Virus record (IMG/VR): IMGVR_UViG_2939521961_000009
Source: a virus
Lineage: Duplodnaviria; Heunggongvirae; Uroviricota; Caudoviricetes
DNA: 64,000 nt
Strand: one strand, 5' to 3'
In this document: in pieces, positions 40,935-60,266 of the stretch
Numbering within the stretch: the stretch's first letter is position 1
Layout of the letters: the number at the start of each line of letters is the position of its first letter
The notes under the pieces: model-generated
What the model was told of the DNA's origin: nothing
The model's database searches: none
The model's input: the letters and a program-made list of their open reading frames with translations, nothing else
Translations under genes and position numbers: made by a program

Positions 40935-40942
40935 GCCTTACC

Positions 40943-42445: not shown

Positions 42446-42687
42446 TGCGGTTTCTCCTTATCGGATGCCGGTTGGGCGACCGGTTTTTCTGTCGCAGTCG
42501 TTGCATCCGCAGATACAGCCGGAGCCTCTTCAGCGGCTTTTTCAGCCTGAATGACATCGCCGTCATCAAGACGCCGACACCAGAACGGCGTAAAGGGCTT
42601 TTCCTCCCCCTCCTGTGCCAGCGGGCGCATTGTGTCGGGATCACGAATCAGGCGTCCCGGCGCGGGTTTGATAAAGATGGTTTTCAT
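42442..42687 (-). CDS. Mu gp38-like small protein
   Basis: Position only. Confidence 0.5.
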   Translation of the reverse strand: MKTIFIKPAPGRLIRDPDTMRPLAQEGEEKPFTPFWCRRLDDGDVIQAEKAAEEAPAVSADATTATEKPVAQPASDKEKPQ

Positions 42688-44014: not shown

Positions 44015-44057
44015 ATTTGCCCTCCGCAGGGGCCGGGCCGTAAGCCCGGCTCACCGT

Positions 44058-45005
44058 TTACAGATAATCCGCGACAACCAGCTCCAGCTTGCCCTTCATC
44101 TCGTTAGAGACGGTTGCGTTTCCGTCTGCGAACAGTTCACGCTCCAGCAGCTGCACCGCCTGTTTTTCCAGCGAGGTGGGGACAACAATATGGGTGGGTT
44201 TGATGCCGAGTTTGCGGCCACCGTCAGCGGTAAATTCGCGCATGGCTGACCAGCCGTGCCACAGTGCATCCAGCGTCAGCGGTGACTGCATCATGTAGGC
44301 CATCTGCCAGAAGCCGTAGCCCACATTGCGACGGGCGGATGCACCAAACACAAATTCGTTATCGGTGAATGCGCGACCTTCATCGACTTTGGTCTGGGCA
44401 ACCAGTTCAGCCTTACGGCGATCCTGATAAATCAGCGGTTTGATTGCGCGTGAACAGTCGAGCAGATACCAGGCAGGACCGCTGTAATCCGCTTGTGCAC
44501 CGACAGAGCCGGTTTTTGCCACAAACATATTGCTGACCATCTGCGCATCCCCGGAGCCATCCACTTTGGGGTAAACAGGATGTTCGGTATCAAAGAAGTT
44601 CTGGCCGTCATAGCAGGCCGCATTAATCCCGTCACGAAGAGCAGCAAAGACCAGTTCATCCGGTTGTGCCGCAGCAGCGCGCCCCATCTCCTGGAACAAC
44701 GGGGAATAAATACCGAGGTTATCGTCTTCGAAGTCATCGCGGTTAATGGCGACGGTGCCTTCAAAGGTTTTGTTCACGATGGCATAGCCATAGGCCTTCA
44801 TCTTCTCGATGACGCGGGAGCCGATCCACTCACGGAACTGCGGGAACTGCCCCAGCCAGCCGTAGGTGTTGGATTTCGACGTGGACGGTACGGTCATCGC
44901 AATTTTTTTGTACTGCGACGGGGCCATGGACATCCCGGCCTGAAAATCAGAACGGTAGCCCGTCATCAGGGCGGTGATCATCGCCGGTGTAATCGGGGTA
45001 GGCAT
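44058..45005 (-). CDS. Major head subunit (Mu T-like), 315 aa
   Basis: Size and Mu order. Confidence 0.8.
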   Translation of the reverse strand: MPTPITPAMITALMTGYRSDFQAGMSMAPSQYKKIAMTVPSTSKSNTYGWLGQFPQFREWIGSRVIEKMKAYGYAIVNKTFEGTVAINRDDFEDDNLGIYSPLFQEMGRAAAAQPDELVFAALRDGINAACYDGQNFFDTEHPVYPKVDGSGDAQMVSNMFVAKTGSVGAQADYSGPAWYLLDCSRAIKPLIYQDRRKAELVAQTKVDEGRAFTDNEFVFGASARRNVGYGFWQMAYMMQSPLTLDALWHGWSAMREFTADGGRKLGIKPTHIVVPTSLEKQAVQLLERELFADGNATVSNEMKGKLELVVADYL

Positions 45006-46129
45006 TATTGCATTTCCTCTTTCATTTTCAGGAACTCGGCTTCGGTTTTACCCAGCAGTTTGGCGGCCGCGATATCTTCAGCCGACAGCACAGCGGTGGC
45101 AGTCTTTTTATCCGGCACGGTCACGGTGTCGGTCTGAAGGCCGGTCAGGGCCGCAACCGGCTGGCGGGCGTCAAGCTGTGCAGAAAGTGCCGCAACGCCA
45201 ATCTGCCCGCCCAGTTGTTCCAGATAGCCGCGTTCGCTTTTGAAGATGCGCCCTTCGGATTCAGCCTTGTCCAGCACCTGCTCCAGCGTGGTGCTGCCGT
45301 GCTGCGCCGACAGCGCAACGTATTCGGTACGCAGGGCGTTATACGTTTCAACGGGCACGTATTTCGTCAGATCAATACTGCCGCCAGCCGGTGTGCCTTT
45401 TGCGGTTTCCAGCTCTGCCGACAGACTGGCGACCTGTGTTTTCAGGTTGTCGTGTGCATCCGCACGGGTTTTGATCCCGGTGAGGGCAGACAGCGCCGCC
45501 GTGCCCAGCTCCGGCGTAAATTCGTCACCGTCAGCCACGGTCAGACCGAGCGCCGTCAGCAACTGGCGTAATTGCTCATTCATGGAGGTATCCTTTAAAG
45601 GAGGGTTTAAGGCGTTATAAAGGTCATCCGCCGACAGTGCGGCGACAGGATTCATGCCGGTCAGACCGGGGTCACCGGTAATAGCCAGCATCCGAAGTTC
45701 GACAGGTTCGCCGGTGCTCTCGTCATAGCCAATCACCGGTGAAAACCAGGGGAATTCGTTATTACGCAGATGTTCAAGGGCCGGAGGGTTCCACTTCGGG
45801 CGCACCTCGAAACCTCGCTCTTCACTGAAGCGAAAATTCTCCGGTGAGGCCATCACAAAACCGGCAGCCGGTGCCGGATGTCCCTCAATCAGGGTCTGGT
45901 GGTTGTAGTCAATTTTCACCGGCTGATTGAGCGCCACAACACGGGAGACCATGCGCTCAACGGCTGCATGGTTGATCAGCCAGCCCTCGGCCGGTTTTTC
46001 CGGGCGACCGTCACGGGCCTTTACCCGACCGGCTGGCATGATCTGACACCAGTCACCGTCCCCGTCTGCGGACAGGCTGATGGCATTCAGAATGGCATAA
46101 GCAAGTTTGGGCGTGTTTTTCGTCTTCAT
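45005..46129 (-). CDS. Head protease/scaffold protein (Mu I-like)
   Basis: Size 374 aa and Mu order. Confidence 0.75.
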   Translation of the reverse strand: MKTKNTPKLAYAILNAISLSADGDGDWCQIMPAGRVKARDGRPEKPAEGWLINHAAVERMVSRVVALNQPVKIDYNHQTLIEGHPAPAAGFVMASPENFRFSEERGFEVRPKWNPPALEHLRNNEFPWFSPVIGYDESTGEPVELRMLAITGDPGLTGMNPVAALSADDLYNALNPPLKDTSMNEQLRQLLTALGLTVADGDEFTPELGTAALSALTGIKTRADAHDNLKTQVASLSAELETAKGTPAGGSIDLTKYVPVETYNALRTEYVALSAQHGSTTLEQVLDKAESEGRIFKSERGYLEQLGGQIGVAALSAQLDARQPVAALTGLQTDTVTVPDKKTATAVLSAEDIAAAKLLGKTEAEFLKMKEEMQ

Positions 46130-46305
46130 TCCGGCAGCATAGGCCGGGAATTTTCAGGGCGGGTTTTGCGGGATTTCAGGAAGTGCTTCCAGGGGAAAAA
46201 TACAAAGGCGCTTCACGCAGATTTTAAAGCCCGTTAAATACAGGTTAGAAAATCACGACACGCGCCTGAAGGGGGTAAGGTAATGCATTTGCATACCTTA
46301 AACAA

Positions 46306-46779
46306 TTAAGGCGTTTCTGTGGCCTTTTTAAAGCGTTTTCTGATTTCGTCCATGATCTCCTGCTCTGCCACCTGATCAAAGCCCATATACGGACGTGCAC
46401 CAATGGCCGCCGGTCCCGGCGGCATACCTGGCAGGCCACCCCACTGATGAATGGCCGCATAAGGCTCATTTGATCCAATCAGCGCCCAGGTGTCGCCATA
46501 ATCCGTGGTCAGGCGTCGGGCCAGATCGCCGTTCAGCGTCAGGATTTTGCCGGGCATGTATCCCTTACGGGTACGCCACTTGCGGTAAGGATCTGACCAG
46601 TCATGCCAGCGTTCGCCGTCCGGCTCTTTTTCCTGTTCAAACGCCATTTCTGACGATGACAGAAGGCTGGACGCCACACTGCGGGCCAGGTCTTTTCCGC
46701 CACCCACAAACTGAAGCCGGGCAAAGACCCGCTGGAGACGCGTAACGTCAACAACGACGGCGGCATCAATGGATGACAT
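46306..46779 (-). CDS. Virion morphogenesis protein (Mu G-like)
   Basis: Size 157 aa and Mu order. Confidence 0.65.
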   Translation of the reverse strand: MSSIDAAVVVDVTRLQRVFARLQFVGGGKDLARSVASSLLSSSEMAFEQEKEPDGERWHDWSDPYRKWRTRKGYMPGKILTLNGDLARRLTTDYGDTWALIGSNEPYAAIHQWGGLPGMPPGPAAIGARPYMGFDQVAEQEIMDEIRKRFKKATETP

Positions 46780-46900
46780 ATTGCCTCCGTATAAAATATG
46801 AATATAAAATAAGCAGGCGGTCAGTGTACGCTTAACTGGTAAAGTCGGTGCCTGCCTCCGGGTGGATCATGTATGCGGGTTCGACCCCCGCCACTGACCG

Positions 46901-48232
46901 TTAATCAATATCTCCTTCCAGTACCTCAAGCATTCCGCCCCGGATATCCGATTTCAGCTTATCCATATTGATAACCCGGTAAGCATTAACAATCACATCC
47001 AGTTTATCCGGCTGACGCTTCAGGCTGTACGGTGCATTAACGGCAATCTGCACACTGCCATCCTGATTTTCCACGATATACATCAGATTGTTGTGCCGTT
47101 TGTCCCACAGTACCGCTTTTGGCCTTGCCAGCATTGCCGGTAAGCGCCCGAAATCCTCCGGTGTCAGGGCGATACCGTCATTCTGATGTTTCATGCTGTC
47201 CGCATGGAGCACATTTTTACCGCTCATCGCCAGCAGGCGGGCCGGTGGCGTTCCCGTCCGGCTTTCCACCGCCTGCGCAATGCTTTCGGTCATAAAGCCC
47301 AGCGTGCGGATATCGTTACCGCCTCGCCGGGTTTTCATGATGTTTTTTGCCCAGATGCGGAACGCCAGCTGCCGCTCCGGGCTGTTGTTCATCTCCTGAA
47401 CCACCATTTCCCGTAACGCCGGGCTTTTCACCTCGATCAACTTGCGGAGCAGCGCCTGGTCTGTGCCGAACGCCGCCGAACCGGGGTTATATGACCAGCC
47501 CACATCCGGTGTCATGGTTCTGGTGCCATCTGAATATGTGGTCACCGGCATTTCTCTGACTTCTCCGGTCTGCTTATCCACGCCAGCCTCAACATTGCGG
47601 GTGGAAAGATGATCCTGACCGGATGAAACGGATAACCCCATTGCATCCAGACGGGTCTGAGACAATGGCCGGACACGGCAGCGGCAGTTCCAGCCATTGG
47701 GTGGGTAGTGTGTATTCCAGAACGGATCGTCATAGCGGAATACCAGACCGTTAAGGGCGGAATGCGCCGGGCGGGTGCGGCTGTCCATCACCGCCACATA
47801 CTGCCAGAACGGATGCGTGTCCGTGTTGTTCATCATCTGCGTGTAACGCCCGGCATTGTAAGCCACGCGGGTGTTCACGTTGTAAATCAGCGCCAGACGG
47901 CGGGGACAGCCCAGCTGCACTTCTTCTGCGTTACCGGCGCTGTCCACCACAATCTGCTTTCCCCACCATCCCAGCTTTTGCAGGCGGGGGGTCAGTGTGC
48001 GGATAAATGCTTTCTGTGAAATCCCCTCATCAATGGCCCGTTGCACTTCCGCCTGTAGTGTGGTCAGTACGTCCAGGCGTGCCACTTTTGCCGCCGTGAA
48101 CGAACGGGCATGAACATCCGCGTCTGTTTCGAACCAGTTCCAGCTGATATGCGCCCCTTTGGCGCGGAAGTATGCCACCGCCTCTTTTGAGGGAAGCGTG
48201 GCGGCATAACCTAAATCAATCCCCTGTGCCAT
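46901..48232 (-). CDS. Head morphogenesis / minor head protein (Mu F-like)
   Basis: Size 443 aa and Mu order. Confidence 0.75.
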   Translation of the reverse strand: MAQGIDLGYAATLPSKEAVAYFRAKGAHISWNWFETDADVHARSFTAAKVARLDVLTTLQAEVQRAIDEGISQKAFIRTLTPRLQKLGWWGKQIVVDSAGNAEEVQLGCPRRLALIYNVNTRVAYNAGRYTQMMNNTDTHPFWQYVAVMDSRTRPAHSALNGLVFRYDDPFWNTHYPPNGWNCRCRVRPLSQTRLDAMGLSVSSGQDHLSTRNVEAGVDKQTGEVREMPVTTYSDGTRTMTPDVGWSYNPGSAAFGTDQALLRKLIEVKSPALREMVVQEMNNSPERQLAFRIWAKNIMKTRRGGNDIRTLGFMTESIAQAVESRTGTPPARLLAMSGKNVLHADSMKHQNDGIALTPEDFGRLPAMLARPKAVLWDKRHNNLMYIVENQDGSVQIAVNAPYSLKRQPDKLDVIVNAYRVINMDKLKSDIRGGMLEVLEGDID

Positions 48233-49814
48233 CCAGCATCCCCTTCATTTCCGCAGCAAACATGGCATCACTGAGCAGCGTCATCAGGCGGGAATCATCC
48301 ATTTCACGGTAAAGGGCAGGCAGGTCTGCCAGTGCCTCCGCCAGCCCCCGCGTTCTGATGGCATCAATGACCGGCTCCAGTACCGGGTCGATGGCCTCCT
48401 GTAACCGGCGGGCAGGCACCGCATCCCCCATGTCGTCCAGTTCATCTCGGGGGCTGCTTTTCGCTTCCGGCAGTCTGGCAGCCAGCGCTGTCTGCTCTGT
48501 CTTCTCCTGTTTTTCCGGTGGCATCTCTTTGTCTGTCTGAGCAGGTTCATTGCCACTCTGACGGACACGGAAGATGGCTTCACCGGGGGCAGGCTGTGGA
48601 ATACCGGTCTGCTCCCGTACCCAGGGATCAGGAATATCCATCCCCGTACTGAGCTGCATCACCGCACTGGTGATTTTGGTGATATCCCCCGGCTCTTTTG
48701 TCTGGAAACAGATACGCGGCAGGCGACGGATATCAATGGCGTGGGCGGTGTTCAGGGCATACAGCGGATACACCAGATCGCGGTTCAGCGTGGCGGCCAG
48801 CTGACGTAAATCAGAATCCCTGATTTCCCGGCGCACCTCGTTATGCACTTCACCCAGCGAACGTGCGCCCTTGTCTCCGGCTTCCGTGGTCAGCGTGCCG
48901 CCGAGGATAGCTTTGGAGATGGAACGCTCCCCCCACGAAATCATGGTTTCAAACGGATCGGCCTGACCGTTCGCTGCCGCCTGAAACTCCAGCGACATCC
49001 CGGCCGGGATGATCCCGCCTGTACGTCGCCCGATATCCATCACCGCCCGCATCAGGGCGCTTTTCTGCTCCGGTGTTGCCCCGGAGGGGTATTTACCGAC
49101 CTTCATCGGCAGGCCGTACACCTCCAGAAATTCAGCCAGATCGCGCACGGAATAGTTTTTGAAAATGAACGGCCAGATAAGCGTTCTGACAAGCCCCGTC
49201 GCACCACCGTAGCCGGTGCGTGAACGTGACTGATGCACTATCCAGCCAAAGGGCTGAAACGCCACCCCGGCATGGCTGCCGTCACGCAGCCGCAGTTCGC
49301 TCAAATCATCCGGGTTAAGGCAGAAATGCCCGCTGTCACGCCAGCGGATGGCGCGGATGATGTGCATTTTACCGAGCATCCCGTGCTCAATCTCCATGCA
49401 GGAATAGCCTTTCAGGATGGCATCGGTGGCATCAAACAGCATGGCATCAAACCAGTCGGCGGAATGCAGATATTCGTCGAGCATTTCCGCGTCCTTTTTC
49501 TCATTCGCGCTGGCGTTCGGGGGCGGCTCAATACTCCAGGGCACGCCCTGAATGGCAAGACGTCGCTTGCCCAGCTCTGCAAAAAGGTGGGTATCCTTTT
49601 CTTCAATGTCAGCGGCCAGATCGGACTGGGCAATCAGATCGCCACGTTCAGCCCCGCGAAGGCACTGTGCCGCCCGGTTCGGGGTGATACCCGAGGCCGG
49701 ATGTTCAATATAACGGCTGGCAATCTGCGGAATATCCAGCGCGGCGCTCTGCATCTCCGGGTCAAAGGAGAAAGGTTTTCCGTCAAGATCAATTATACGT
49801 CCCACTACCAGCAC
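48216..49814 (-). CDS. Portal protein (Mu gp29-like)
   Basis: Size 532 aa, between terminase and F. Confidence 0.75.
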   Translation of the reverse strand: MLVVGRIIDLDGKPFSFDPEMQSAALDIPQIASRYIEHPASGITPNRAAQCLRGAERGDLIAQSDLAADIEEKDTHLFAELGKRRLAIQGVPWSIEPPPNASANEKKDAEMLDEYLHSADWFDAMLFDATDAILKGYSCMEIEHGMLGKMHIIRAIRWRDSGHFCLNPDDLSELRLRDGSHAGVAFQPFGWIVHQSRSRTGYGGATGLVRTLIWPFIFKNYSVRDLAEFLEVYGLPMKVGKYPSGATPEQKSALMRAVMDIGRRTGGIIPAGMSLEFQAAANGQADPFETMISWGERSISKAILGGTLTTEAGDKGARSLGEVHNEVRREIRDSDLRQLAATLNRDLVYPLYALNTAHAIDIRRLPRICFQTKEPGDITKITSAVMQLSTGMDIPDPWVREQTGIPQPAPGEAIFRVRQSGNEPAQTDKEMPPEKQEKTEQTALAARLPEAKSSPRDELDDMGDAVPARRLQEAIDPVLEPVIDAIRTRGLAEALADLPALYREMDDSRLMTLLSDAMFAAEMKGMLDGTGD

Positions 49815-51469
49815 CCCCGATCAAATTCATGATATGCCTCATCGTCATCACGATAACCGCCCTCCATGGCCCGCGACCGCTCCGGCAGCGCCTGACAGGC
49901 TGATTCATCCAGGATGAAGCCCTCCATGTATGACGCCCGGTTTGCCATACAGAGCGCCACGGCAAAATCGCCATGGCGGCGGGCGTTCACAGCCGTTGCG
50001 TTCTGGTCCTTCGTACGCCCCTTGTCAATTTGCGGGATACCGTTCACCACCTTCACATGGCGCAAATCATCAAGCGTGGTCTGATGGCGGGCGACGAGGA
50101 TATTCTGATCCTCAAACTCGGCCTTCAGTTTTGGCATCCACTCGCCGTACCACTTCGGCGATAACATCACGCAGTCGATGATGTCCGGGCCAAAGGCCAG
50201 CAGCGCGGCTTCGGCCAGATAGCCGCCGTTACCGGTGGCGTCGAACGCCGCACCGACCAGCGCCGGAACGCGGGTCAGGATGTACATCATCACCTGCTCC
50301 TGCTGGGCATACGGCAGGTTGCGCAGCTCCACGCGAAACACCTCGCGTTTTGCCAGGGATTCAGTGATTTCCAGCAGCACAAAGCAGGAGAGGTCACCGA
50401 TGCGGGCAAAGTCTTCCCCGAAGCTGAAGCGGGAACGGGGATTTAACGCCTCTAAAAGCGGTTTTAAATGTTCTTCACACCAGGTTAAAACCTCCGATTC
50501 ACGCAGCCATGCGGCACGGCTGATGAAGTCGTCCGGGGCTTCAAACGTCAGAATCGGGATGTCGCGGAGCATCGCCATTTCAATAAGCGCGTGAGGAATA
50601 TAGGCACCGCCGGATTTTTTCGGGATACAGCCGTATTCCTCGTCGGCATCCTCACGGGTCGGGGCGTTTTTGTAGAGATCATCACGCCACTTCTGCTCGC
50701 TTTCCGGTGACCATTCGCGGCCGGTGACATAACAGATACGACGGTACAGCCCGTCCGCAATGGCATCATCCAGGGTAATGCGGTGGACGCTGTAATCCTT
50801 GCGCCCCTCGCGGGCTTCCTGAATGTACTGATTAAACAGATTATCGACGCCGTTATGCGTGGAGATAATACGCACGCGCGCGCCCCACATGGTGAGCGCC
50901 ATTGCCGCCTTGAGAAGCTCATCCAGTGACTCGTGGAACGCGGCTTCATCAATCACCACATCCCCCTGAAGGCCGCGCAGGTTTGACGGACGGGAAGACA
51001 GTGCCTGAATTTTGAATCCACTGTTCGGAAAGCGGATCATGTAGGTCAGAATTTCTTCTTTTTTATCCCGATCCCAGAAGGTCTGCTCATACACATCAGC
51101 ATCTGCCAGCTGGTTAAAGGCACGGGAGAACAGTGCGCAGGCAGAAATATATTCCAGCGCCATCTCCTGCTTTGACCCCACATAAAACACATTGCGGCCA
51201 CCACGCCGCTTAGGCTTTGCGGCGGTAATGACGTTACGCCCGGCTTCCGCCCAGGTAAGCCCGGTGCGGCGGGATTTTTCCGCGATGCAGACCTCGCTTT
51301 CATCCTCAAACCAGCGGGCCTGATAATCCAGAAATACCGGCATATCACCGGGCAAATCAAGGCTGTCCGGCACATCCACGCCCAGCAGGGCTTTTTCACC
51401 GGCCAGATCAATTTTGCGGGTGGAGACGGTATTCGTCAGTAAGGGGGAGAGTTCTTCGGCGTTATTCAT
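49805..51469 (-). CDS. Terminase large subunit (Mu gp28-like)
   Basis: Size 554 aa and Mu order. Confidence 0.8.
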   Translation of the reverse strand: MNNAEELSPLLTNTVSTRKIDLAGEKALLGVDVPDSLDLPGDMPVFLDYQARWFEDESEVCIAEKSRRTGLTWAEAGRNVITAAKPKRRGGRNVFYVGSKQEMALEYISACALFSRAFNQLADADVYEQTFWDRDKKEEILTYMIRFPNSGFKIQALSSRPSNLRGLQGDVVIDEAAFHESLDELLKAAMALTMWGARVRIISTHNGVDNLFNQYIQEAREGRKDYSVHRITLDDAIADGLYRRICYVTGREWSPESEQKWRDDLYKNAPTREDADEEYGCIPKKSGGAYIPHALIEMAMLRDIPILTFEAPDDFISRAAWLRESEVLTWCEEHLKPLLEALNPRSRFSFGEDFARIGDLSCFVLLEITESLAKREVFRVELRNLPYAQQEQVMMYILTRVPALVGAAFDATGNGGYLAEAALLAFGPDIIDCVMLSPKWYGEWMPKLKAEFEDQNILVARHQTTLDDLRHVKVVNGIPQIDKGRTKDQNATAVNARRHGDFAVALCMANRASYMEGFILDESACQALPERSRAMEGGYRDDDEAYHEFDRGCW

Positions 51470-52050
51470 CAGGCTTTACCCAACAGAATCCCCTTAATAC
51501 GGGACTCAAGCTGTTCACTCATCCCGTCCACGCCGCGCAGCTCGTCGGTGACGGCGTTTGCCATCTCTTCAGCAAATGCAGCCCGGATTTCTTTTTCACG
51601 CTTAATGCTGCGCTCGGCGGCACTTTCCGCACGCTGTGCTGACAGGAGGATGTCCTTAATAAGACGCATATCCACGTCGCTGTCACTGTTCAGGGATTCG
51701 GTCGCGGCACGCAGACGGCGGTACATCAGGGCGCGGGACATCTCCAGAATCAGCGCTGTGGTTTCACCGGTTGGCTTGTCTCCCAGTTCGGCCATCATGG
51801 CTTTTGTCTGCTCGCGTAAATCACGCAGGTTACGGGCAATCAGCTCATTACGGGAGGCTTCCCGGCTGATGGCCGCCGGTGAAAGCTGCTGCTCTTCCGG
51901 CAGGCCCGCCTCACGGATCAGACGGTTGATTTCCTCGCGTATCTGGACCTGCGTCAGACGTTTTTCACGCAGCATTTCCAGCAGTGGCTTACGGATGCTG
52001 TCGGGGAGCAAATCCACCTTGCGCACGCGTCCACGCGTCGGCTTGTCCAT
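51469..52050 (-). CDS. Putative terminase small subunit (Mu gp27-like)
   Basis: Position before large terminase; Arg-rich helical protein. Confidence 0.6.
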   Translation of the reverse strand: MDKPTRGRVRKVDLLPDSIRKPLLEMLREKRLTQVQIREEINRLIREAGLPEEQQLSPAAISREASRNELIARNLRDLREQTKAMMAELGDKPTGETTALILEMSRALMYRRLRAATESLNSDSDVDMRLIKDILLSAQRAESAAERSIKREKEIRAAFAEEMANAVTDELRGVDGMSEQLESRIKGILLGKA

Positions 52051-52052
52051 CG

Positions 52053-52343
52053 TTACCCCCTTGCGCGTGGTTTCTTCACACCCGGAACGCTGGCGCGACC
52101 TTCCGCCACATCCTGACCCCGGCCGGTCAGTTCGGCGATGAAATAACCGTTAACGAGCGTGCGCTTACGCACCAGTCCCTGCTCGGCAAGCCAGGCAATG
52201 TGGGTGTGAACGGTGTCGCGGGACACGCGGTGGCCGTAATCATCCAGACAGTCCTGGAGCACGGATTCACCCAGTTCACCGTTGTAATCTGCCAGCGACC
52301 GCAGAATGACCAGACGCTGATCTTCAGTAATGAAATCACTCAT
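52053..52343 (-). CDS. Mu gp26-like protein
   Basis: Position only. Confidence 0.5.
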   Translation of the reverse strand: MSDFITEDQRLVILRSLADYNGELGESVLQDCLDDYGHRVSRDTVHTHIAWLAEQGLVRKRTLVNGYFIAELTGRGQDVAEGRASVPGVKKPRARG

Positions 52344-52648
52344 TGCGTTTTTTTCCTTACAGCCTGCTCCAGCAGCAGTTCGTTCTGATAGGAGACAGAG
52401 CGGAGCGTGGCGTTCGTGGTTTTCAGTTCACCCCGCAGGGTCACGATTTCCACATTCAGACGGTTGACCTCGGCTTCTGTCGGCAGTGACGACAGGCGGG
52501 TTTCCACCTTCTCAACGCGGTCGGAGAGTTTTTCAAAGGCCTCGCGGGGGACAAACGTTTTGCGCATCAGCGCCATGAATATCCCGCCAGCGGTTGCCGT
52601 CGCCGAAAGGATCGGCACAACATAATCTTTAACGATGCTGACCCACAT
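52340..52648 (-). CDS. Mu gp25-like protein with N-terminal TM helix
   Basis: Position only. Confidence 0.5.
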   Translation of the reverse strand: MWVSIVKDYVVPILSATATAGGIFMALMRKTFVPREAFEKLSDRVEKVETRLSSLPTEAEVNRLNVEIVTLRGELKTTNATLRSVSYQNELLLEQAVRKKTQ

Positions 52649-52856
52649 GACGGGCCTCCATGATGTTCTGGCAGTTCACACAACGGATGGCATCCGGCAC
52701 AGCAACAAGACGTGCGGCGGGGATCTCTCCGCCACAGTCCGCGCAGACACGTCTGCCCGGAGCATCCATTGCCCGGCGCTTACGTGTCAGCCGGTTACAA
52801 AGGGCGCGTTCTGATCCCCGCTCCATCACAGCCTGAGCACGATCTGAATCATCCAT
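52629..52856 (-). CDS. TraR/DksA-type C4 zinc-finger protein (start taken at MDDSDRAQ)
   Basis: CADCGGEI...CVNCQ motif. Confidence 0.6.
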   Translation of the reverse strand: MDDSDRAQAVMERGSERALCNRLTRKRRAMDAPGRRVCADCGGEIPAARLVAVPDAIRCVNCQNIMEARHVGQHR

Positions 52857-52866
52857 ACCTTTTTCC

Positions 52867-53238
52867 TTACTTCGTCTTTCCTGCCGGAACAGCAGGCGTT
52901 CCGGCCATATCAGTAAATTCATGTTGTCGCCGCGCCTCCAGACGACGAATACTGGCCTTGTCCACGTTGCAGTTCTTGATCACCGCCAGCAGTTGCAGGT
53001 TGTAAGTGACCGATGCCCCAAACGTGAACGGCTCCGGCGCAGGAGGGACCAGGCAGTCAGCCAGCCATTCAGCGGGGATCGGCACCGGCTTCACAGGCAC
53101 GTATTTCACAGACGGCCCGGCGCACCCGATCAGCCACATCATCAGGAACAGGGGCAGAGGCCGCAGGCACTGCCGCCAGCGACCGGCGGACAACGCTCTG
53201 CTGCCCCTCGCTGTGCTGAATGTTCTGTTGTTTTTCAT
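52867..53238 (-). CDS. Candidate o-spanin lipoprotein (Rz1-like), Pro-rich, lipobox LIGC
   Basis: Overlaps the 3' half of the Rz-like frame, as in Rz/Rz1 pairs. Confidence 0.4.
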   Translation of the reverse strand: MKNNRTFSTARGSRALSAGRWRQCLRPLPLFLMMWLIGCAGPSVKYVPVKPVPIPAEWLADCLVPPAPEPFTFGASVTYNLQLLAVIKNCNVDKASIRRLEARRQHEFTDMAGTPAVPAGKTK

Positions 53239-53419
53239 TCGTGGCCGCCTCACTGATTTGTGAAATGAGTTGCAGGGTGTGCTGCTGATTTGCCAGCACC
53301 TGACGCGCCTCATCCCGCTCACGCACAAGCACCTGATTATTGTCTTCAAGGCGCTGCGTCTTCTGGTGCATTCCCCATATAGCGGCAACCAGTACAGCGA
53401 TAATCCCCAGCGCCGCCAT
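53069..53419 (-). CDS. Candidate i-spanin (Rz-like), N-terminal TM then coiled-coil; start uncertain
   Basis: Follows the endolysin; TM segment MAALGIIAVLVAAIW then Gln/Glu-rich helix. Confidence 0.45.
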   Translation of the reverse strand: MAALGIIAVLVAAIWGMHQKTQRLEDNNQVLVRERDEARQVLANQQHTLQLISQISEAATNEKQQNIQHSEGQQSVVRRSLAAVPAASAPVPDDVADRVRRAVCEIRACEAGADPR

Positions 53420-53531
53420 GCACGCCCCGGCAATCAGGGCCGGTAAGGCATTATTCACCGCAGCCACAGGACACCCCGTAACAGCAGTACCGCACACAGC
53501 AGCGCTATCATGAGCGGTCGCCAGAAGCGGT

Positions 53532-54032
53532 TCAGACTTTCGGCAAGTCGTAGCGACATAACCATTCATCCGCCGAACGGCGGGCCTCAAGGCCGGGGAG
53601 TTTCACCCCCTTTGAATAAATCCAGCGGATATACTGCTTACAGGACGCGGGCATCTGCCCGGCATTGATCAGGCGCAGAAGCGTGGAGTTGCGAAAGTTC
53701 GTTTCACCGGCCCAGAAGATCCACGAAGCCAGCGCCACCGTCTGACCACGGGTAAGCGGCACCTGAACACGCCGATCAATGGCCGCAAAGGCCCATTTCA
53801 TGTCCTTTTCCAGTAGTTCCAGGCATTCTTCATCTGTCAGGGTCATACCCGGTTTCACATCCGGGCCGGTATGGCCGTAACAGATGGTGGGTGTACCGGT
53901 GGGATCGATATACGTGGAGTTTTCTTTCCCTTCCCAGTAACCGGTGTAATGCGTGGCAATCGTGAACGTCCCGGCACCGGCCAGAACAAGGGCAATCAGC
54001 TTTTTACGCAGTGGTGCGGGGAGTTTTGGCAT
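53532..54032 (-). CDS. SAR endolysin (lysozyme family with N-terminal signal-anchor)
   Basis: N-terminal hydrophobic LIALVLAGAGTFTIA followed by lysozyme-like domain. Confidence 0.8.
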   Translation of the reverse strand: MPKLPAPLRKKLIALVLAGAGTFTIATHYTGYWEGKENSTYIDPTGTPTICYGHTGPDVKPGMTLTDEECLELLEKDMKWAFAAIDRRVQVPLTRGQTVALASWIFWAGETNFRNSTLLRLINAGQMPASCKQYIRWIYSKGVKLPGLEARRSADEWLCRYDLPKV

Positions 54033-54103
54033 TGTTACGCTGTCTCATGATGTTCTCTGAGTCAGCGTAACGGTGAAGGAGAGGCGGCAGGCTTTGCGGA
54101 ATA

Positions 54104-54529
54104 TCAGAAAAGTGGCGGTTGCGTTCTTGCCAGATGCAGACGGCGCTGTTCGCGTATGACGGTATAAATCTGGGTTTCTGACATCCGGTAATGGCGGCGA
54201 AGGGATTCAATTTTCTCGCCCCGGTCCCAGCGCGAAAATATCTCATTGTTTCGCAGCTCGGCAAAGAGAGATTCCCCGACCGGCAGGTAATAACCCCGTC
54301 CGCCCATATAGGCTGCCTGAGCCGCAGCCACCTTGCGTGCCAGTTTACCGGCCAGTACCGGCTCAATCCCCTGACGCTGAAGTTCTGCGCCGGTGACTTC
54401 AACCAGTTCTGACAGGGTCCGCGGCCAGTTCTTTTTGAGAACATCATCAGGGATGTCATCAAGGCGGTCGATAAGGGCGTGCAGTTGCTCACTGTCACCA
54501 CCAAACATGCTCATCTGAGTTTCTGCCAT
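54104..54529 (-). CDS. Mor/C-family transcriptional activator
   Basis: C-terminal region matches recalled Mor/C pattern (GGRGYYLP...HTH); sits before lysis genes. Confidence 0.75.
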   Translation of the reverse strand: MAETQMSMFGGDSEQLHALIDRLDDIPDDVLKKNWPRTLSELVEVTGAELQRQGIEPVLAGKLARKVAAAQAAYMGGRGYYLPVGESLFAELRNNEIFSRWDRGEKIESLRRHYRMSETQIYTVIREQRRLHLARTQPPLF

Positions 54530-54598
54530 ATCAGCCTCCGGTTCTCGCGTTCCCGGTAAGTTTAAAATAAAAATCCCGCGTTGTGGCGGGATTTGGAG

Positions 54599-55108
54599 TT
54601 AACGGGGAAGTGATTTTTCATACTGCCTGCAAACGGCGTCATACCCCATCAGCGTGCGTTCGGGCATTCCCATCGCGGCCAGCATTTTGCGGCGGTGCCA
54701 TCGCTTGAGACGCTCCAGCACATCTGAGGCCAGGGCGGGGTGTTGCTCCAGCCACTGCCAGTTTGCCACACCTTCGCCGCCGTTTTGCGCGGCCGTCTGC
54801 GATTTCACCCAGCGGTTAAGGGCGGTTTCCGCACCATCGGTGATAAAGCCCTGCCGGTGCATCACCTTCCAGATGGCGCGAATTTTGGCGGTCACCGTAC
54901 CCGGTTTTAAGGCCCGGTTAACCGGGTTCTGACGCACTTTAAAACCGCGTTTTTTGAAAACATCCAGCACGCGGGATAACTCATCCGGTGACATATCCCG
55001 GCAGCTGGTTTTGCCGGTGGCTGCCAGCAGCGCGGATGTATAAGTCTCATCATCCAGGGCAAGCTCGCGCTTTGCCACATGAATGGCGGATATCAGTTTT
55101 CCTCTCAT
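54599..55108 (-). CDS. GemA-like early protein
   Basis: Position immediately before Mor/C as in Mu; size 169 aa. Confidence 0.6.
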   Translation of the reverse strand: MRGKLISAIHVAKRELALDDETYTSALLAATGKTSCRDMSPDELSRVLDVFKKRGFKVRQNPVNRALKPGTVTAKIRAIWKVMHRQGFITDGAETALNRWVKSQTAAQNGGEGVANWQWLEQHPALASDVLERLKRWHRRKMLAAMGMPERTLMGYDAVCRQYEKSLPR

Positions 55109-55401
55109 ACCGTATTTACCTTTTTACGGACATGGAAAGCCTTTTCTGCCTCATCCCACCGGGCATGGTGTGTTGGTGGAATAATCATTATGTGCCAGCC
55201 ATCTCTGGTTGTTATCCGGCAGAAAAATTCACCGCTATATAACACAATGGCCTGCTGAATGAGCGCATCAGCCGCCCGTTCAACCGGATGTCTTTTATCA
55301 AAAAAGCAGATGATTTTTCGACATAACCACCGGGTAATAACAAATGCGCCGAAAAAGGATGTGATATATAAGCACCAGAACAACAGAGAACTATTGTCCA
55401 T
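55105..55401 (-). CDS. Hypothetical membrane protein, 98 aa
   Basis: N-terminal TM helix; Mu-like early accessory region. Confidence 0.45.
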   Translation of the reverse strand: MDNSSLLFWCLYITSFFGAFVITRWLCRKIICFFDKRHPVERAADALIQQAIVLYSGEFFCRITTRDGWHIMIIPPTHHARWDEAEKAFHVRKKVNTV

Positions 55402-55588
55402 TATCTTTCTCCTTATTCAGTCTTCTGCGACATTCGGCACAGTCATCAGGGCTTTCAAATGTATCCGGCTCGCGATTATGAGCCAGATATAACCACCGCC
55501 TACATATACTGATATTATCGCCAGTTTTAAAAAAATGATGCTTCTTAGCCATCAGAGGGCGCGCCCATCCAGCGGGTAGACTATTCAT
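55391..55588 (-). CDS. Hypothetical Cys-containing small protein, 65 aa
   Basis: ORF in operon register. Confidence 0.4.
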   Translation of the reverse strand: MNSLPAGWARPLMAKKHHFFKTGDNISICRRWLYLAHNREPDTFESPDDCAECRRRLNKEKDNGQ

Positions 55589-55955
55589 TTGCTTTATCCT
55601 CCATACTGGACAAAATCATCTGTATTAATGTCGGGCGTGGAGATATACGCATTTCATTAAGCGTCTGAAGGGCAGCAACAGCTGCCTGTTTATCGGTGCC
55701 TTTGGCAATTTCCGCAAGAGAATGCACAATCCATAACGGACTTAACGCCACGACTGAATCCAGAATCATGTCATCCATAATAATTTCTGACACATCCCGC
55801 TTATCACATTCCTTATCCATAAAAGAAACGATTTTTTCCACATCTTCCGGTTTCATGCCTCCGGCGATAAGAAATTTGCGATACTCATAAGACGATCTTA
55901 ATTCAATACTCATATTCATCTCCTGTAACTCTGACAAGGACGTGATTTTTCTCAT
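55581..55955 (-). CDS. Hypothetical protein, 124 aa
   Basis: ORF in operon register; preceded by 177-bp gap containing the G10 tract. Confidence 0.45.
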   Translation of the reverse strand: MRKITSLSELQEMNMSIELRSSYEYRKFLIAGGMKPEDVEKIVSFMDKECDKRDVSEIIMDDMILDSVVALSPLWIVHSLAEIAKGTDKQAAVAALQTLNEMRISPRPTLIQMILSSMEDKANE

Positions 55956-56082
55956 TTATGTTTTCCAGTAATACGGATATATATGTCGATAAGAAGATTC
56001 ATAATAAACAGGAAGAGCGACATCCTGATAAAGAACCAAATATCTGGCATCATGGACAGGTTTCCTGTAATCGCAAATATAA

Positions 56083-56092
56083 CCCCCCCCCC
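56083..56092. repeat. Homopolymeric tract C10 (G10 on the coding strand of the operon)
   Basis: Read directly: aaCCCCCCCCCCaacacc. Confidence 0.9.
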
Positions 56093-56132
56093 AACACCGG
56101 AACGAAAATTGCGAAAAATACAAGTCTCTTTA

Positions 56133-56684
56133 TCATGGCGTTAACTCCCGTAATACAGCGTCCTCGGCAGTCCGGCGATGGTGATAAATAAAATTCACCG
56201 TACTCTCGGATAATTCAAATTTCTCGCCTATTTCCCGGAAGGTAAGACGTCGTGGTGATTCAGCATCCCGTAATTCACGAATAAGATGAACATCATCGTC
56301 AGGTATACGGGTGAAGGGCAGCAATTCTCCGTATTTTTTCATGCTTACGCCAATATATCGCGCCCGATTGTGGACAGAATCCCGGTCTCGCCCCAGATAT
56401 TCTCCTATTTGCTTACCGGTCATCGTTCTGGCATTTTTTCGGATAAATTTATCTTCATCATGTTTAAATCTTGGACGTTTGCATTTGAGCAACTCCGGGT
56501 AAGTACCGCGTAATAAAACAATCCGGTTATGTACACCCCAGAAACTTCTTTTTACCCTGACAGCAATATCCTTAACCGGGGTGGATGGATAAAGCGCAAT
56601 CAGCAGCGCATCTTCTTCAGGTGTCCACGCACGGACATGAGCAGGTGCCTGACCTTTTCGCCCCATGGGTTGTAAAATCATCAT
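56133..56684 (-). CDS. Hypothetical DNA-binding protein with Myb/SANT-like motif (WTPEEDALL) and two HTH-like segments, 183 aa
   Basis: Motifs read from translation. Confidence 0.5.
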   Translation of the reverse strand: MMILQPMGRKGQAPAHVRAWTPEEDALLIALYPSTPVKDIAVRVKRSFWGVHNRIVLLRGTYPELLKCKRPRFKHDEDKFIRKNARTMTGKQIGEYLGRDRDSVHNRARYIGVSMKKYGELLPFTRIPDDDVHLIRELRDAESPRRLTFREIGEKFELSESTVNFIYHHRRTAEDAVLRELTP

Positions 56685-56687
56685 ACA

Positions 56688-57203
56688 TCACCCCCTGACT
56701 CGCTTTTCAGCAGCATAAAACTCATCAGACAGAATTTCGGTCATTTTCTGATTTGCGGGTTTTACGCCGCACTCAAGGTAAATCACATCGTCAACGCAGA
56801 ACCACTTCACAGGGCCAAACATGATTGCCGAGAAATCAATACCCAGCCAGAACAACAGTGCATCGGTTCTGGCATACGTGACGGGCGAATATTCACGCCA
56901 CAGACTGTTAAGTTCGTCAGAGGCAACGCGCAGGGCTTTGGGAATACGTGATGTGCGCGGTGTGCAGCTCCAGCCATTCGACGCAGTCGGTTTTCGCCAT
57001 AAGTCGCGATGAAAAGGATATTTGTCATCCATAAAGCGCAGCCCTTTAAAACAAAAGCCACTGATACCGGATACAAATACCGACCGGCACGCAACATTCA
57101 GCACGGCCTCAAGGCGTTTTGCCTCATCCTTAACTTTCTGGCAGTCCTGCTGATATTTTTGCCACGCGGCCAGCGCGGAAGGGTTTGATGTTTTAAAGAA
57201 CAT
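56688..57203 (-). CDS. Hypothetical protein, 171 aa
   Basis: Start overlaps upstream stop; operon register. Confidence 0.45.
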   Translation of the reverse strand: MFFKTSNPSALAAWQKYQQDCQKVKDEAKRLEAVLNVACRSVFVSGISGFCFKGLRFMDDKYPFHRDLWRKPTASNGWSCTPRTSRIPKALRVASDELNSLWREYSPVTYARTDALLFWLGIDFSAIMFGPVKWFCVDDVIYLECGVKPANQKMTEILSDEFYAAEKRVRG

Positions 57204-57736
57204 TACGCCACCTCCGCAGATATCCCGGCAGGCGCGGCCGTCCGGTCAACAATCAGGTAACGCAGAACGCGCGAGGTGATATTCCAGCCGCTTAAACCGC
57301 AGATAATGACACCCAGGCGTATGTCGATATACGCCATCACAAACTGGGGCACGCCTTCTTTCATGGCCTGCTCATCAACTTCAGCCACCACATAAACGGT
57401 TTCACAGGTCAGAACGCCCTGAGCAAATTCCCACGCCATTGACGGAATATCATGCCCCTCAATCCACGGCAGGGATTTTCTGAAGCTGCACCACTGAACA
57501 TCATCAGCCGCACCTTCCTGGCTGCATTTGCGACGAACCGGCTGCACCGGGCGGGGACGCGGAATATCATAAAAACCGTTACATTCCGTCAGCACCCCGG
57601 CATCGACCGCATCACGCAGAAAATAAACCATCGAGGATGGCGGCATATTCATTTTTTCAGCCAGAATGCCGCAGGTCAGACGCCCGTAAATACTCAGCCA
57701 GTTTTTAACCCCTTCAAGCACTTTTGCATCAATCAT
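57203..57736 (-). CDS. Hypothetical protein with possible N-terminal winged-helix, 177 aa
   Basis: Operon register. Confidence 0.45.
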   Translation of the reverse strand: MIDAKVLEGVKNWLSIYGRLTCGILAEKMNMPPSSMVYFLRDAVDAGVLTECNGFYDIPRPRPVQPVRRKCSQEGAADDVQWCSFRKSLPWIEGHDIPSMAWEFAQGVLTCETVYVVAEVDEQAMKEGVPQFVMAYIDIRLGVIICGLSGWNITSRVLRYLIVDRTAAPAGISAEVA

Positions 57737-57739
57737 GAA

Positions 57740-58282
57740 TTATTCCTCCGTCAGCGCCACATATTCAGAATGTTTAATCTCCTGGCATTCTTCAGGAATA
57801 CCCCCTTTTATTTCCCTGCCATAAGCGCCTACTTTAAACACCACGCACAGGGCATCACGGGAGAGCGACGGGGTCCACCAGGAGTCCATGTTAAACATGG
57901 AGGGGATTCTCATTACCCCCAGCTTTTCACAGAGCCAGACAAGGAAATCAGGACGCTTTCTTAACTCGCGTTCAGCGGCTTCAATCATTGCGGCAATCGC
58001 CGGTCCTTCAGGGCATGACTCATCAGGTCTGGCAATAAAGCACGGTCCGTCCCCGATAAAAGCCACATCATCGCGCTTACGCCAGCCCGCAGGCAGAGCA
58101 CCAGAAAAATAAAACTCACTGATTACGTCCATGGCAAACGGCTTTAAGCGCAATCCGGCAGCGCCTGTATTTTTCAGTAATGCCCGAAGAATACTGTTGC
58201 GTAGCGGTAAAACAGTCTGTTGATATTTGGTGAAATATTTATTTGTCTGCACACGGTCTAATTTGAAATAAAAATATGCCAT
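57740..58282 (-). CDS. Hypothetical protein, 180 aa
   Basis: AAGGAACAGG RBS before the ATG; first gene after gam. Confidence 0.45.
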   Translation of the reverse strand: MAYFYFKLDRVQTNKYFTKYQQTVLPLRNSILRALLKNTGAAGLRLKPFAMDVISEFYFSGALPAGWRKRDDVAFIGDGPCFIARPDESCPEGPAIAAMIEAAERELRKRPDFLVWLCEKLGVMRIPSMFNMDSWWTPSLSRDALCVVFKVGAYGREIKGGIPEECQEIKHSEYVALTEE

Positions 58283-58379
58283 ATATCCTGTTCCTTATTT
58301 TCAGTTTACAGGCGCAGGCAGTCCCCTGACGCGAGCGCCATACTTAAAACGATGTGATATTTAAAGATTTAATGCGGTG

Positions 58380-58910
58380 TTATTTATTCAGTCCGGCGTC
58401 CTGTTCAAAAGGCTCGACATAAAAACTTTCAGCGCCTTTATTCACCTTAATACCGGCAATGCCTTTCACTGCATCCGGCTCCGCCAGGACCGCTTCCTTG
58501 TTCACTTCCTCTTTCGTGCGGATGAATCGCTCAAGCCCCATACGGCGCAGCATTTCAATCACACCTTCCACATCACGGCTGACGCTGCATGATGGATTTC
58601 CCAGCCGCCATGATACTGTTCCGGTGGTCAGATTGGCTGTTTTGGTTTTGCCGCCGTTCGTCAGCTCATCGCGGTTGGTTTTGCACCAGTCCTGAATCCC
58701 CTTAAAAAGCACTTTGATTTCTTTTTTAAGGTTTTCAATCTGCGGCGTATAACGGGCGGTGATTTCTGCCACTTCATCATTCATCGCCGTTTCCAGCCGC
58801 AGCGCCTCTCGCTGAATATCGCCCAGGGTACGGATATCGCGGCTGACTTCTTCGCGGGTCTGCGGTGCAGCCTCGGCTGCGGCCTTTAATTTTGTAACAC
58901 GTTTAGCCAT
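58380..58910 (-). CDS. gam: Gam host-nuclease inhibitor (Mu Gam-like), 176 aa
   Basis: Close match to recalled Mu Gam (…LETAMNDEVAEI…DELTNGGKTKTANL…FIRTKEEVNKEA…). Confidence 0.85.
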   Translation of the reverse strand: MAKRVTKLKAAAEAAPQTREEVSRDIRTLGDIQREALRLETAMNDEVAEITARYTPQIENLKKEIKVLFKGIQDWCKTNRDELTNGGKTKTANLTTGTVSWRLGNPSCSVSRDVEGVIEMLRRMGLERFIRTKEEVNKEAVLAEPDAVKGIAGIKVNKGAESFYVEPFEQDAGLNK

Positions 58911-58921
58911 TTTGTTTTTCC

Positions 58922-59215
58922 TTATTGCAGTGTGCCTGATGCTTTATGCACGCGGTGGCGTTTAATGATGGCATCCGCCCCAAAAGCCTGTACAGATGCC
59001 TGAAATTCCGCTGAGAGAAACTGAATAATTTCAGGACTGTGATACTGGAGAATACTTGCATAAACGTCACAGAGTGACGTCGGCCTGTTATTCGTATCAC
59101 GTTCTGTTTTTACATCCACACCAATCTTTTCATGCACTTCAACACAGTCATTGCCTGCCGGTTTTTCGTCATGCGAAACATGCTTAAATTCAAAAATAAC
59201 GCGTACTTTGCTCAT
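58922..59215 (-). CDS. Hypothetical small protein, paralogue of the next gene (start taken at MSKVRVIFEFKHV)
   Basis: Shared N-terminus MSKV.R.IFE.K with the adjacent ORF. Confidence 0.45.
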   Translation of the reverse strand: MSKVRVIFEFKHVSHDEKPAGNDCVEVHEKIGVDVKTERDTNNRPTSLCDVYASILQYHSPEIIQFLSAEFQASVQAFGADAIIKRHRVHKASGTLQ

Positions 59216-59219
59216 GGAA

Positions 59220-59492
59220 TTACCCCTGCTGATTAAATTCATTACCTTTAATAACCCCGGAACGCATGCTCATATCTTTCATGAGCGCACTGGCTTTCAT
59301 TGCCACAAGTTCAGCAAAGTCTCTGCTTTCCGCGAGCATAACCACCCCAAAAATCATGGCGGGTCCATCACCTTTCTGCTTTATCCCGGTTGAACGTATG
59401 TCCAGACTTACCCCCATGCGCACTGTTCCATCAGCGTTTTTATGGATAACGTGCTCCTTGTATTCGAAAATAATGCGTACGACTTTACTCAT
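59220..59492 (-). CDS. Hypothetical small protein, 90 aa, paralogue of the previous gene
   Basis: Shared N-terminus; tandem arrangement. Confidence 0.45.
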   Translation of the reverse strand: MSKVVRIIFEYKEHVIHKNADGTVRMGVSLDIRSTGIKQKGDGPAMIFGVVMLAESRDFAELVAMKASALMKDMSMRSGVIKGNEFNQQG

Positions 59493-59770
59493 CCTCTGGT
59501 CCTCGTTCTGTTTGGATAACTGACCCGGCGTCTGACCTCACGGCAGAACCGAATCATGGCATTAAAGGCTTCTTCCTCCGTCACCGCTTCCGGTATCCCC
59601 GGAACCAGTAACTGCTCCTGTTCATCACGTCCATGACGCGCCATAACCTCAATCACATGCCGTACCGTGGCAGGCTTTCCGGCAACTATCGGCAATGCAC
59701 CTTCCGGCAGGACGTAACCAAACTCAATAAGACCACTCGACCACGCCCATGCAATGAGATTTTTTTTCAC
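59489..59770 (-). CDS. Hypothetical protein, 93 aa
   Basis: Operon register. Confidence 0.45.
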   Translation of the reverse strand: MKKNLIAWAWSSGLIEFGYVLPEGALPIVAGKPATVRHVIEVMARHGRDEQEQLLVPGIPEAVTEEEAFNAMIRFCREVRRRVSYPNRTRTRG

Positions 59771-59771
59771 C

Positions 59772-60038
59772 TCACACCTCCCAGTAAACCGTGCAGCCGC
59801 TGATGCGGGTGGCCTTCACACGGCGGCGCAGGCCGTTGGTCTGTATGGTGATTTCAATTTCACCGGTTCCCTGCACGTTGCCTACCGGCGGCGTGGTTTT
59901 CAGTGCAAAACGTTGCGGATAGCGCTTACTGCGTTCCAGTACCGCACCGGCAAGTTCGGTCAGACGGCGCGCGCTGTTCAGGGAGTCGAATAAATTCATT
60001 TTGTTACCGCAGGATTGCATATTCATATAACACCTCAT
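59772..60038 (-). CDS. Hypothetical protein, 88 aa (start uncertain)
   Basis: Operon register. Confidence 0.4.
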   Translation of the reverse strand: MRCYMNMQSCGNKMNLFDSLNSARRLTELAGAVLERSKRYPQRFALKTTPPVGNVQGTGEIEITIQTNGLRRRVKATRISGCTVYWEV

Positions 60039-60266
60039 TTAGCTGACTTGTTTCGCACCAACAGAACGGCATATTCCGCTGTAAACGTCTGTCGCACCTT
60101 CGCGATCAAGTCCGGCAGATATCACCATTCGTGTGCGGTCATTAAATTCAAAAAGAAAATCGCCACATTCTTTATTTTCGGCCAGTGAAATCACCTTCAC
60201 GTTATCGAAATTAACCAGGTAAAAGCGTCCGTAAATATCAGGAATATTAAATACCGCCATAATCAC
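60039..60266 (-). CDS. Small protein at the position of Mu kil, 75 aa
   Basis: Immediately downstream of B, overlapping its stop; assignment is positional only. Confidence 0.4.
   Translation of the reverse strand: MIMAVFNIPDIYGRFYLVNFDNVKVISLAENKECGDFLFEFNDRTRMVISAGLDREGATDVYSGICRSVGAKQVS

Follow-up and report, generated by a model that had tools for sequence, protein, structure and literature searches.

A run of ten cytosines in the early region of a Mu-like prophage raises the question of whether it is a regulatory element between genes or part of a gene, and of what a change in its length would do. In a preliminary description of the 64-kb window (the whole stretch of DNA analyzed here, 64,000 nucleotides), the run was placed in an intergenic gap, where slipped-strand mispairing was proposed to switch the genes downstream on and off. 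We analyzed the coding content of this gap, the expression signals around it, and the corresponding alleles in related genomes, and found that the tract lies within a small conserved coding sequence (CDS), which is frameshifted in the window.

Position of the tract in a small gene

The run of ten C on the + strand, which reads as ten G on the operon strand (−), was confirmed, with the flanks ATAA-CCCCCCCCCC-AACA (Table 1). It is the only homopolymer of at least nine bases in the window; among the other G/C runs, the longest is one 7-mer. G/C runs of 5 to 9 bases are under-represented in the window compared with an independent-bases model: one 7-mer was observed against 7.0 expected, and no 8-mer was observed against 1.9 expected. 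For G/C runs of ten or more bases, the same model predicts approximately 0.2 per window. In E. coli K-12, G·C runs of 8 bp are already outliers (PMC8510543).

The assignment of the locus to a Mu-like early cluster was borne out by the Mu gene order and the hallmark families around it. On the − strand, the early operon leads from a Ner-like HTH gene through transposase A, MuB, Kil, Gam, Gp11_C, and Phage_Mu_Gp12 to the 183-aa HTH protein and the small gene that contains the tract, which is followed by three small unknown genes, GemA, Mor, and lysozyme and then by the late genes. Relatives that are identical in the region have HTH_35 (Ner), Mu transposase, and MuB through to lysozyme, portal, and Mu F in Mu order, and the minus-strand ORFs of the window match the lengths of these genes. 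Around the locus, the genes overlap or abut in an operon-like manner. The host element is a Sp18-type Mu-like prophage of E. coli, with the tract in its early operon. Sp18-type Mu-like prophages are present in O157 Sakai and other Shiga-toxin-producing E. coli, where they are apparently intact, transposition-competent, and located at strain-specific sites (PMC2669165, PMC7430833). In the prophage of strain War, a close relative described below, PGAP annotates a tRNA-OTHER between the virion- and head-morphogenesis genes (L036 2821..2900; approximately 46820..46899, + strand, in the window); ARAGORN found no tRNA in window positions 46600..47100.

Table 1. Coordinates of the tract, the small gene, its partial frames, and the adjacent genes in the window
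Feature	Position	Strand	Description
G10 homopolymer	56083..56092	−	nt 45–54 of the small CDS, codons Leu15–Gly18; one base short of the G11 allele, which is in frame
Disrupted small gene	55952..56136	−	185 nt here, 186 nt when intact; intact product, a 61-aa two-helix membrane protein, MIKRLVFFAIFVPVLGGGVIFAITGNLSMMPDIWFFIRMSLFLFIMNLLIDIYIRITGKHK
Truncated frame present in the window	56050..56136	−	28 codons, MIKRLVFFAIFVPVLGGGLYLRLQETCP, plus TGA stop
Remnant ORF, C-terminal half	55952..56053	−	33 aa, MMPDIW...KHK, helix 2; called by gene callers in frameshifted assemblies
Upstream gene	56133..56684	−	183-aa HTH DNA-binding protein, phrog_323 transcriptional regulator
Downstream gene	55581..55913	−	110 aa, phrog_1988, function unknown; start at Met15 of the listed 124-aa ORF (55581..55955)

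The 177-bp gap in which the tract had been placed does exist between the listed ORFs (177 nt, 55956..56132), but the tract is inside a 61-aa CDS, and the gap is apparent because the frameshift itself erased the small ORF. The ATG of the small gene (56136..56134, −) overlaps the TGA of the upstream gene as ATGA. With a G11 tract, the frame from this ATG comprises 61 codons and ends with a TGA at 55954..55952; with a G8 tract, it comprises 60 codons. The length of the tract modulo 3 sets the frame, so that G8 and G11 are in frame, and G9, G10, G12, and G13 are out of frame. The G10 tract of the window is a −1 frameshift relative to the in-frame G11.

In RefSeq, a 186-nt CDS is annotated at this spot in every relative that we inspected, with the proteins WP_047381727.1, WP_000595947.1, WP_000595948.1, WP_000595949.1, WP_062899254.1, and WP_000621195.1, and the small CDS of strain ECP19-798 is marked "frameshifted." Over seven distinct in-frame alleles, 33 sites are variable, distributed as 9/6/18 at codon positions 1/2/3, and downstream of the tract the distribution is 4/3/12, with 12 of the 19 sites at third positions. 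This codon-position signature, the existence of 16 protein clusters, and the two hydrophobic segments with a helical-hairpin model indicate that the 61-aa frame is truly coding. The frame that is read with G9 or G12 (…GGGYICDYRKPVH…WKT, 59–60 aa) and is open up to the next gene was considered as a second product and was rejected as coding, because the variable sites (18/9/6 in this frame) do not fall on its third codon positions; its GRAVY value is 0.12, compared with 1.24 for the 61-aa frame.

Hydropathy analysis revealed two hydrophobic segments in the 61-aa protein, and its AlphaFold2 model is a helical hairpin with helices at residues 2–27 and 31–59 (mean pLDDT 72). The residues encoded by the tract, Leu-Gly-Gly-Gly (15–18), are in the middle of the first predicted transmembrane helix. 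The homologs form 16 clusters at 90% identity, all from Escherichia or Shigella, in which W34–M46 are invariant, and the protein was found only in Mu-like prophages of these two genera. A profile search of 1.84 billion representative proteins retrieved nothing beyond this family; Pfam, NCBIfam, and PADLOC gave no family match, and phrog_19804 gave a weak one (E = 9e-4). By tblastn against 50,697 phage records, no relative was detected except in a Mu-like insert in a Stx2c phage. A 39-nt block of the gene, TGGTTCTTTATCAGGATGTCGCTCTTCCTGTTTATTATG (residues W34–M46; CDS nt 100–138; approximately 55999..56037, −, in the window), has the same nucleotide sequence in all seven alleles, including the third codon positions, and both of its flanks vary. 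This block could be a recombination mosaic or could reflect a constraint at the nucleotide level.

The second half of the broken gene retains an ORF of its own. The ATG of this remnant ORF overlaps the TGA of the truncated frame as ATGA (56050..56053, −), and AGGA is located 9 nt upstream; the same stop–start overlap arises with G10, with G13, and in the G7 frame. Given the overlap and the AGGA, the 33-aa C-terminal half could be made by reinitiation, and, judged from these signals, the G10 allele could yield the hairpin as two peptides, one for each half.

Transcription and translation downstream of the tract

If the tract were in an intergenic promoter or regulatory region, its length would set the transcription of the unknown genes downstream. 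The tract is indeed upstream of the next gene, and homopolymer spacers control promoters in other bacteria. We nevertheless find this model hardly credible, because the tract is within a conserved, annotated CDS that has a codon-position signature. A promoter and terminator scan of 55500..56700 found no sigma-70-like −35/−10 sites on the operon strand and three promoter-like matches on the + strand, which is the chance level (3.2 expected from shuffles). In addition, the genes overlap or abut as one operon, and relatives have an interrupted sequence of the same length in place of the run. These interrupted relatives specify identical amino acids, which speaks against a switch that evolved for regulation. 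One of the + strand matches, at 56109..56136 (TTGCGA, 16-nt spacer, TATCAT; 9/12), is antisense to the operon and adjoins the tract.

An RNA element at the tract was also considered and was rejected: Rfam gave no family at E values up to 1, and the fold of the RNA from 55900..56150 was weaker than those of shuffled sequences (z = +1.35). Transcriptional control by the tract is unsupported, since there is no promoter-like site on the operon strand, no Rfam family, and no stable fold. The proposal that tract length provides phase-variable control of the downstream genes was not upheld, because the tract forms codons 15–18 of a gene, the operon strand has no promoter-like site in this region, and the downstream gene has its own Shine–Dalgarno sequence.

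The tract had been described as approximately 130 bp upstream of the start of a 124-aa gene. The distance to the ATG at 55955 is 128 nt, as described, but the real start is probably Met15 (55913), which gives a protein of 110 aa rather than 124; PGAP and other gene callers use this start, and phrog_1988 is aligned from residue 15. This start is 6 nt after an AGGAG and 38 nt past the stop of the intact small gene. The effect of the tract on the downstream genes should be small, given that a separate ribosome-binding site serves the next one. The untranslated stretch before the downstream gene is extended from 38 nt in the intact arrangement to approximately 137 nt with G10, and this longer stretch may cause some polarity on the downstream genes. 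In L008, a divergent relative, the gene that comes after the small one is different and overlaps it as ATGA.

Tract alleles in related genomes

Positions 44000..64000 of the window are identical to the genome of strain War over 20,001 bases except for C10 versus C11 at the tract, and the host flanks of the two are identical over 12 kb. Within 12000..44000, the window is approximately 1,267 bp longer than War (NZ_CP074717.1), as implied by the offsets of the flanking 100% matches, and an IS600-type insertion plus its target duplication would have this size. The surplus indicates that the window is from a sister strain of War and is not the same assembly.

A 1.4-kb region around the tract was found in 233 records, including 232 of the 5,426 complete E. 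coli genomes. For a survey of the alleles, we used a 99-nt query centered on the tract, which matched 55 records, and read one representative per identity class. The two records with 100% identity (2012C-4502 and War) have G11, and the 99% class, into which G10 would fall, is empty. The 98% class consists of one record with G9TTTT, the 97% class of 18 records with G6TGGTTTT, and the 96% class of 20 records with G5TTGGTTTT, one of which has a 100-nt span and is a +1 frameshift; the remaining 14 records, at 88 to 89% identity, have GGGGGACTGG or GGGGATTGG. Interrupted forms account for approximately 51 of the 55 matching records and G11 for only 2. Among the 5,426 complete RefSeq genomes, G10 is in none, G11 is in two, and G9T4 is in one. 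More distant relatives, outside the matches to the 99-nt query, have an intact gene with an interrupted tract (for instance, WGVGF in RM9245). Wider pattern scans added no pure-run allele: six loci in IMG/VR were all interrupted, GTDB representatives gave none, and metagenome contigs gave one, which was interrupted.

The alleles read as class representatives form a series within one fixed 13-nt slot between GTGTT and ATATTT. In this slot, GGGGATTGGTTTT encodes LGIGF, G5TTGGTTTT encodes LGVGF, G6TGGTTTT and G9TTTT both encode LGGGF, and G11TT encodes LGGGV; G4ATTGG is another interrupted form, and the interrupted alleles encode L/W-G-x-G. From this series, the pure run appears to be derived and rare, not conserved, at a site in helix 1 that is Gly-rich and variable. 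A repeat that is maintained among orthologs, which would be a sign of selection for mutability, was not found in the survey, as most alleles are interrupted.

On the pure-run background, the length of the tract varies. DNA sequences with this allele background showed G8, G10, G11, and G13; for G9 and G12, the length was deduced from exact matches to the protein product. G11 was read in L001, L009, and L036 and G13 in L014 and L027, and the Logan assembly SRR12341383 carries G13. L010 (GCA_017818735.1) has no mismatch over 3,134 bases except for a G8 tract, which is in frame and gives 60 aa. By an exact-sequence lookup of the predicted products, which counts contigs and not independent isolates and caps each count at 1000, G11 was the mode with 228 contigs, followed by G12 (21), G9 (5, plus 1 on another background), G11 with an extra T (2), G8 (1–2), and G13 (at least 1), and G14 gave none. 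These off-frame lengths are from draft or Logan short-read assemblies, in which homopolymer miscalls also occur; L013, L028, and L033, whose assemblies are of low quality and contain many broken genes, were excluded.

The +1 frame, which is the sole out-of-frame class that can be counted, makes up 28 of 256 contigs with the pure run (approximately 11%), compared with 6 contigs (LGGWFY…) against at least 2,000 in-frame ones for the interrupted alleles (at most 0.3%). The off-frame share is at least 35-fold higher for the pure run, and this excess agrees with the published exponential rise of the indel rate with run length (PMC8510543). Some G9T4 alleles may be hidden in the LGGGF class. G10 and G13 were left out of the count because the 28-aa product of G10 is not called by gene finders. 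A 55-aa TTG-start ORF that is specific to G10 was absent from the collection, and the 33-aa remnant ORF was present in 117 contigs, a count that is common to G10, G13, and other frameshift alleles and in which the lookup collapses similar places.

Two other disruptions of the small gene were observed. In L029 (GCA_047308285.1), an IS21-family element with the IstA/IstB genes (locus 6603..8572) is inside the small gene, and its junction near 9967, where ...AAAGTAAC meets GGGGGTTATATTTGCG, is right at the G tract (window equivalent, approximately 56083..56092), so that the same spot was struck by an insertion sequence in another strain. A second run in the small gene, T7 (CDS nt 17–23 in the L011-type allele), is T6 or T8 in the L015, L019, L028, and L033 and the L018 and L032 drafts. 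These differences may be sequencing errors, because several of those assemblies hold many broken genes.

Origin of the G10 allele and comparison with known systems

We consider it most probable that the tract is an incidental slippage hotspot within the small CDS, which inactivated a dispensable accessory prophage gene in this strain. Interrupted ancestors would have passed from G5TTGG through G6TGG and G9T4 to G11T2, with the frame and the Gly-rich peptide kept throughout. At 9 to 11 bases, the run would have become a hotspot, because the indel rate in E. coli is an exponential function of run length (PMC8510543). Replication slippage would then add or remove G's, by which the small gene would be knocked out and occasionally restored (on with G8 or G11; off with G9, G10, G12, or G13). 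The length modulo 3 would decide whether the 61-aa hairpin is made, and in the window the 28-aa fragment would be made instead. The preliminary description had noted that tract length can change by slipped-strand mispairing and had suggested a check of related genomes; the lengths G8 to G13 among relatives agree with such slippage, and we infer slippage itself as their cause. The same check revealed variation on the pure-run background and, in most relatives, an interrupted tract.

The difference from War might instead be an artifact of sequencing or assembly, in which case the strain would really have G11, one G would have been dropped, and the gene would be intact. The tract is the sole difference from War in 20,001 bases, and because the window departs from War by this one base in 20 kb, the earlier caveat of an assembly-prone homopolymer stands. 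An artifact would also fit with the finding that no complete RefSeq E. coli genome has G10 and two have G11, and with the many indels at runs in the low-quality assemblies L013, L028, and L033. However, G8, G9, G12, and G13 are present on the same background in independent assemblies, including short-read ones, and interrupted alleles also have real-looking +1 variants, one of which is in a complete genome and is flagged "frameshifted" by PGAP. No other homopolymer error was seen in the 20 kb compared. We therefore regard an artifact as unlikely, though it keeps an appreciable share of the probability, and the single-base difference as presumably biological in origin rather than a base-calling error. 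If the G10 allele is real, full-length protein might still be produced from it at a reduced level by RNA polymerase slippage or ribosomal frameshifting. Long homopolymers can induce transcriptional slippage, and the full-length frame is one inserted nucleotide away. Such recoding seems very unlikely, because no stimulatory RNA structure was found and the in-frame G11 is the mode among relatives, so that recoding need not be invoked; moreover, the conserved state is a single uninterrupted ORF, and G10 was in no other genome examined.

A different view of the same hotspot is that the hypermutable tract serves the G11 lineage as a switch, selected and reversible (bet-hedging), that turns the small early membrane protein on and off, for example, a protein with host toxicity or a role in the exclusion of other phages. 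As in a contingency locus, the repeat is inside a CDS, early in it, and its length modulo 3 sets the frame; the length is polymorphic among near-identical genomes, to which sequencing error could contribute. The six lengths from G8 to G13 are centered on the in-frame mode, an in-frame G8 allele exists, and the off-frame share is at least 11%, at least 35 times that of the interrupted alleles. There is also precedent in the coliphages T2 and T4 and in the polyG tracts of Campylobacter phages (10.1101/2025.10.21.683753). Against a selected switch, by far most alleles are interrupted and specify these same residues, which indicates that hypermutability is not a maintained feature of the small gene, and either neutral decay at a hotspot or sequencing error would be expected to leave this pattern as well. 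A true contingency locus is in our judgment improbable. A more specific form of this idea, which we offer as a long shot, is that in one sub-lineage of the Sp18-type prophages in Shiga-toxin-producing E. coli the Gly-Gly-Gly stretch turned into a G11 contingency locus that reversibly toggles the hairpin, which might be a host-toxic or superinfection-exclusion factor, with G10 and G13 perhaps giving two half-proteins via stop–start coupling. The mechanism of an incidental hotspot would work like that of a contingency locus, but on the favored reading the tract is neither a promoter-level switch nor a locus with demonstrated selection.

With the tract read as an incidental hotspot, the main value of this analysis is a corrected annotation, in which what looked like a regulatory gap becomes a small, broken gene and the start of the downstream gene should move to Met15. 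Since the gap is a broken gene, there is no promoter switch left to explain. The locus also provides a natural example from E. coli in which point changes would merge interrupted G-rich codons into a long homopolymer that becomes a frameshift hotspot, with lengths from G8 to G13 on one background. Were the variability reversible and selected, the recently proposed class of phage contingency loci would gain a member in a Mu-like temperate prophage from pathogenic E. coli, and the orphan 61-aa membrane protein would gain a pointer to its function; the phage would be temperate and transposable, and its host proficient in mismatch repair.

Homopolymer contingency loci in coding sequences are described for the coliphages T2 (agt) and T4 (rIIA) (Gomez, Barrick and Waters, bioRxiv 10.1101/2025.10.21.683753), and, as that preprint cites Sorensen et al. 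2021, tracts of 7 to 11 G are in the receptor-binding genes of Campylobacter Fletchervirus phages. The tract studied here is like these loci in that the run is inside a coding gene of a phage, a change of ±1 shifts the frame, and several natural lengths exist; it shares the E. coli host with T2 and T4 and a polyG of similar length with the Fletcherviruses. Unlike them, it is in a temperate transposable Mu-like prophage that is mostly replicated with the host chromosome, and it is in one sub-lineage only and interrupted in most alleles. Phase variation within coding sequences of bacteria (the polyG/polyC tracts of Neisseria, Haemophilus, and Campylobacter and the tracts of Bordetella pertussis, PMC1891110) is similar in that an ORF has a G run close to its 5′ end and is turned on or off by length modulo 3, and the length is polymorphic among close relatives. 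In contrast to those systems, the tract here is not conserved among orthologs, and long G·C runs are rare in E. coli (PMC8510543).

The resemblance to promoter-spacer switches is confined to a G/C homopolymer upstream of a gene; the tract here is translated sequence, not a −35/−10 spacer or an activator site. Homopolymer switches of the promoter-spacer type include those of Bordetella fim and the Neisseria opc and porA promoters. E. coli is mismatch-repair proficient and is not, to our knowledge, known for phase-variation loci based on simple sequence repeats. In its position and presumed early expression, the small gene is like those for the small proteins of the semi-essential early region of phage Mu (Kil and its neighbors, from B/gam to gemA/mor), although the 61-aa protein has no relative among the 50,697 phage records apart from the Mu-like insert in a Stx phage. 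Pseudogenes that arise by homopolymer frameshift in prophages and in decaying genomes, as in the defective prophage pool of E. coli O157 (PMC2669165), are similar in that the loss or gain of one base in a run disables an accessory gene of a prophage, with no change in the remainder of the element. Unlike in decaying prophages, the rest of this prophage region is identical to that of an intact relative, which points to an isolated event and not to general decay.
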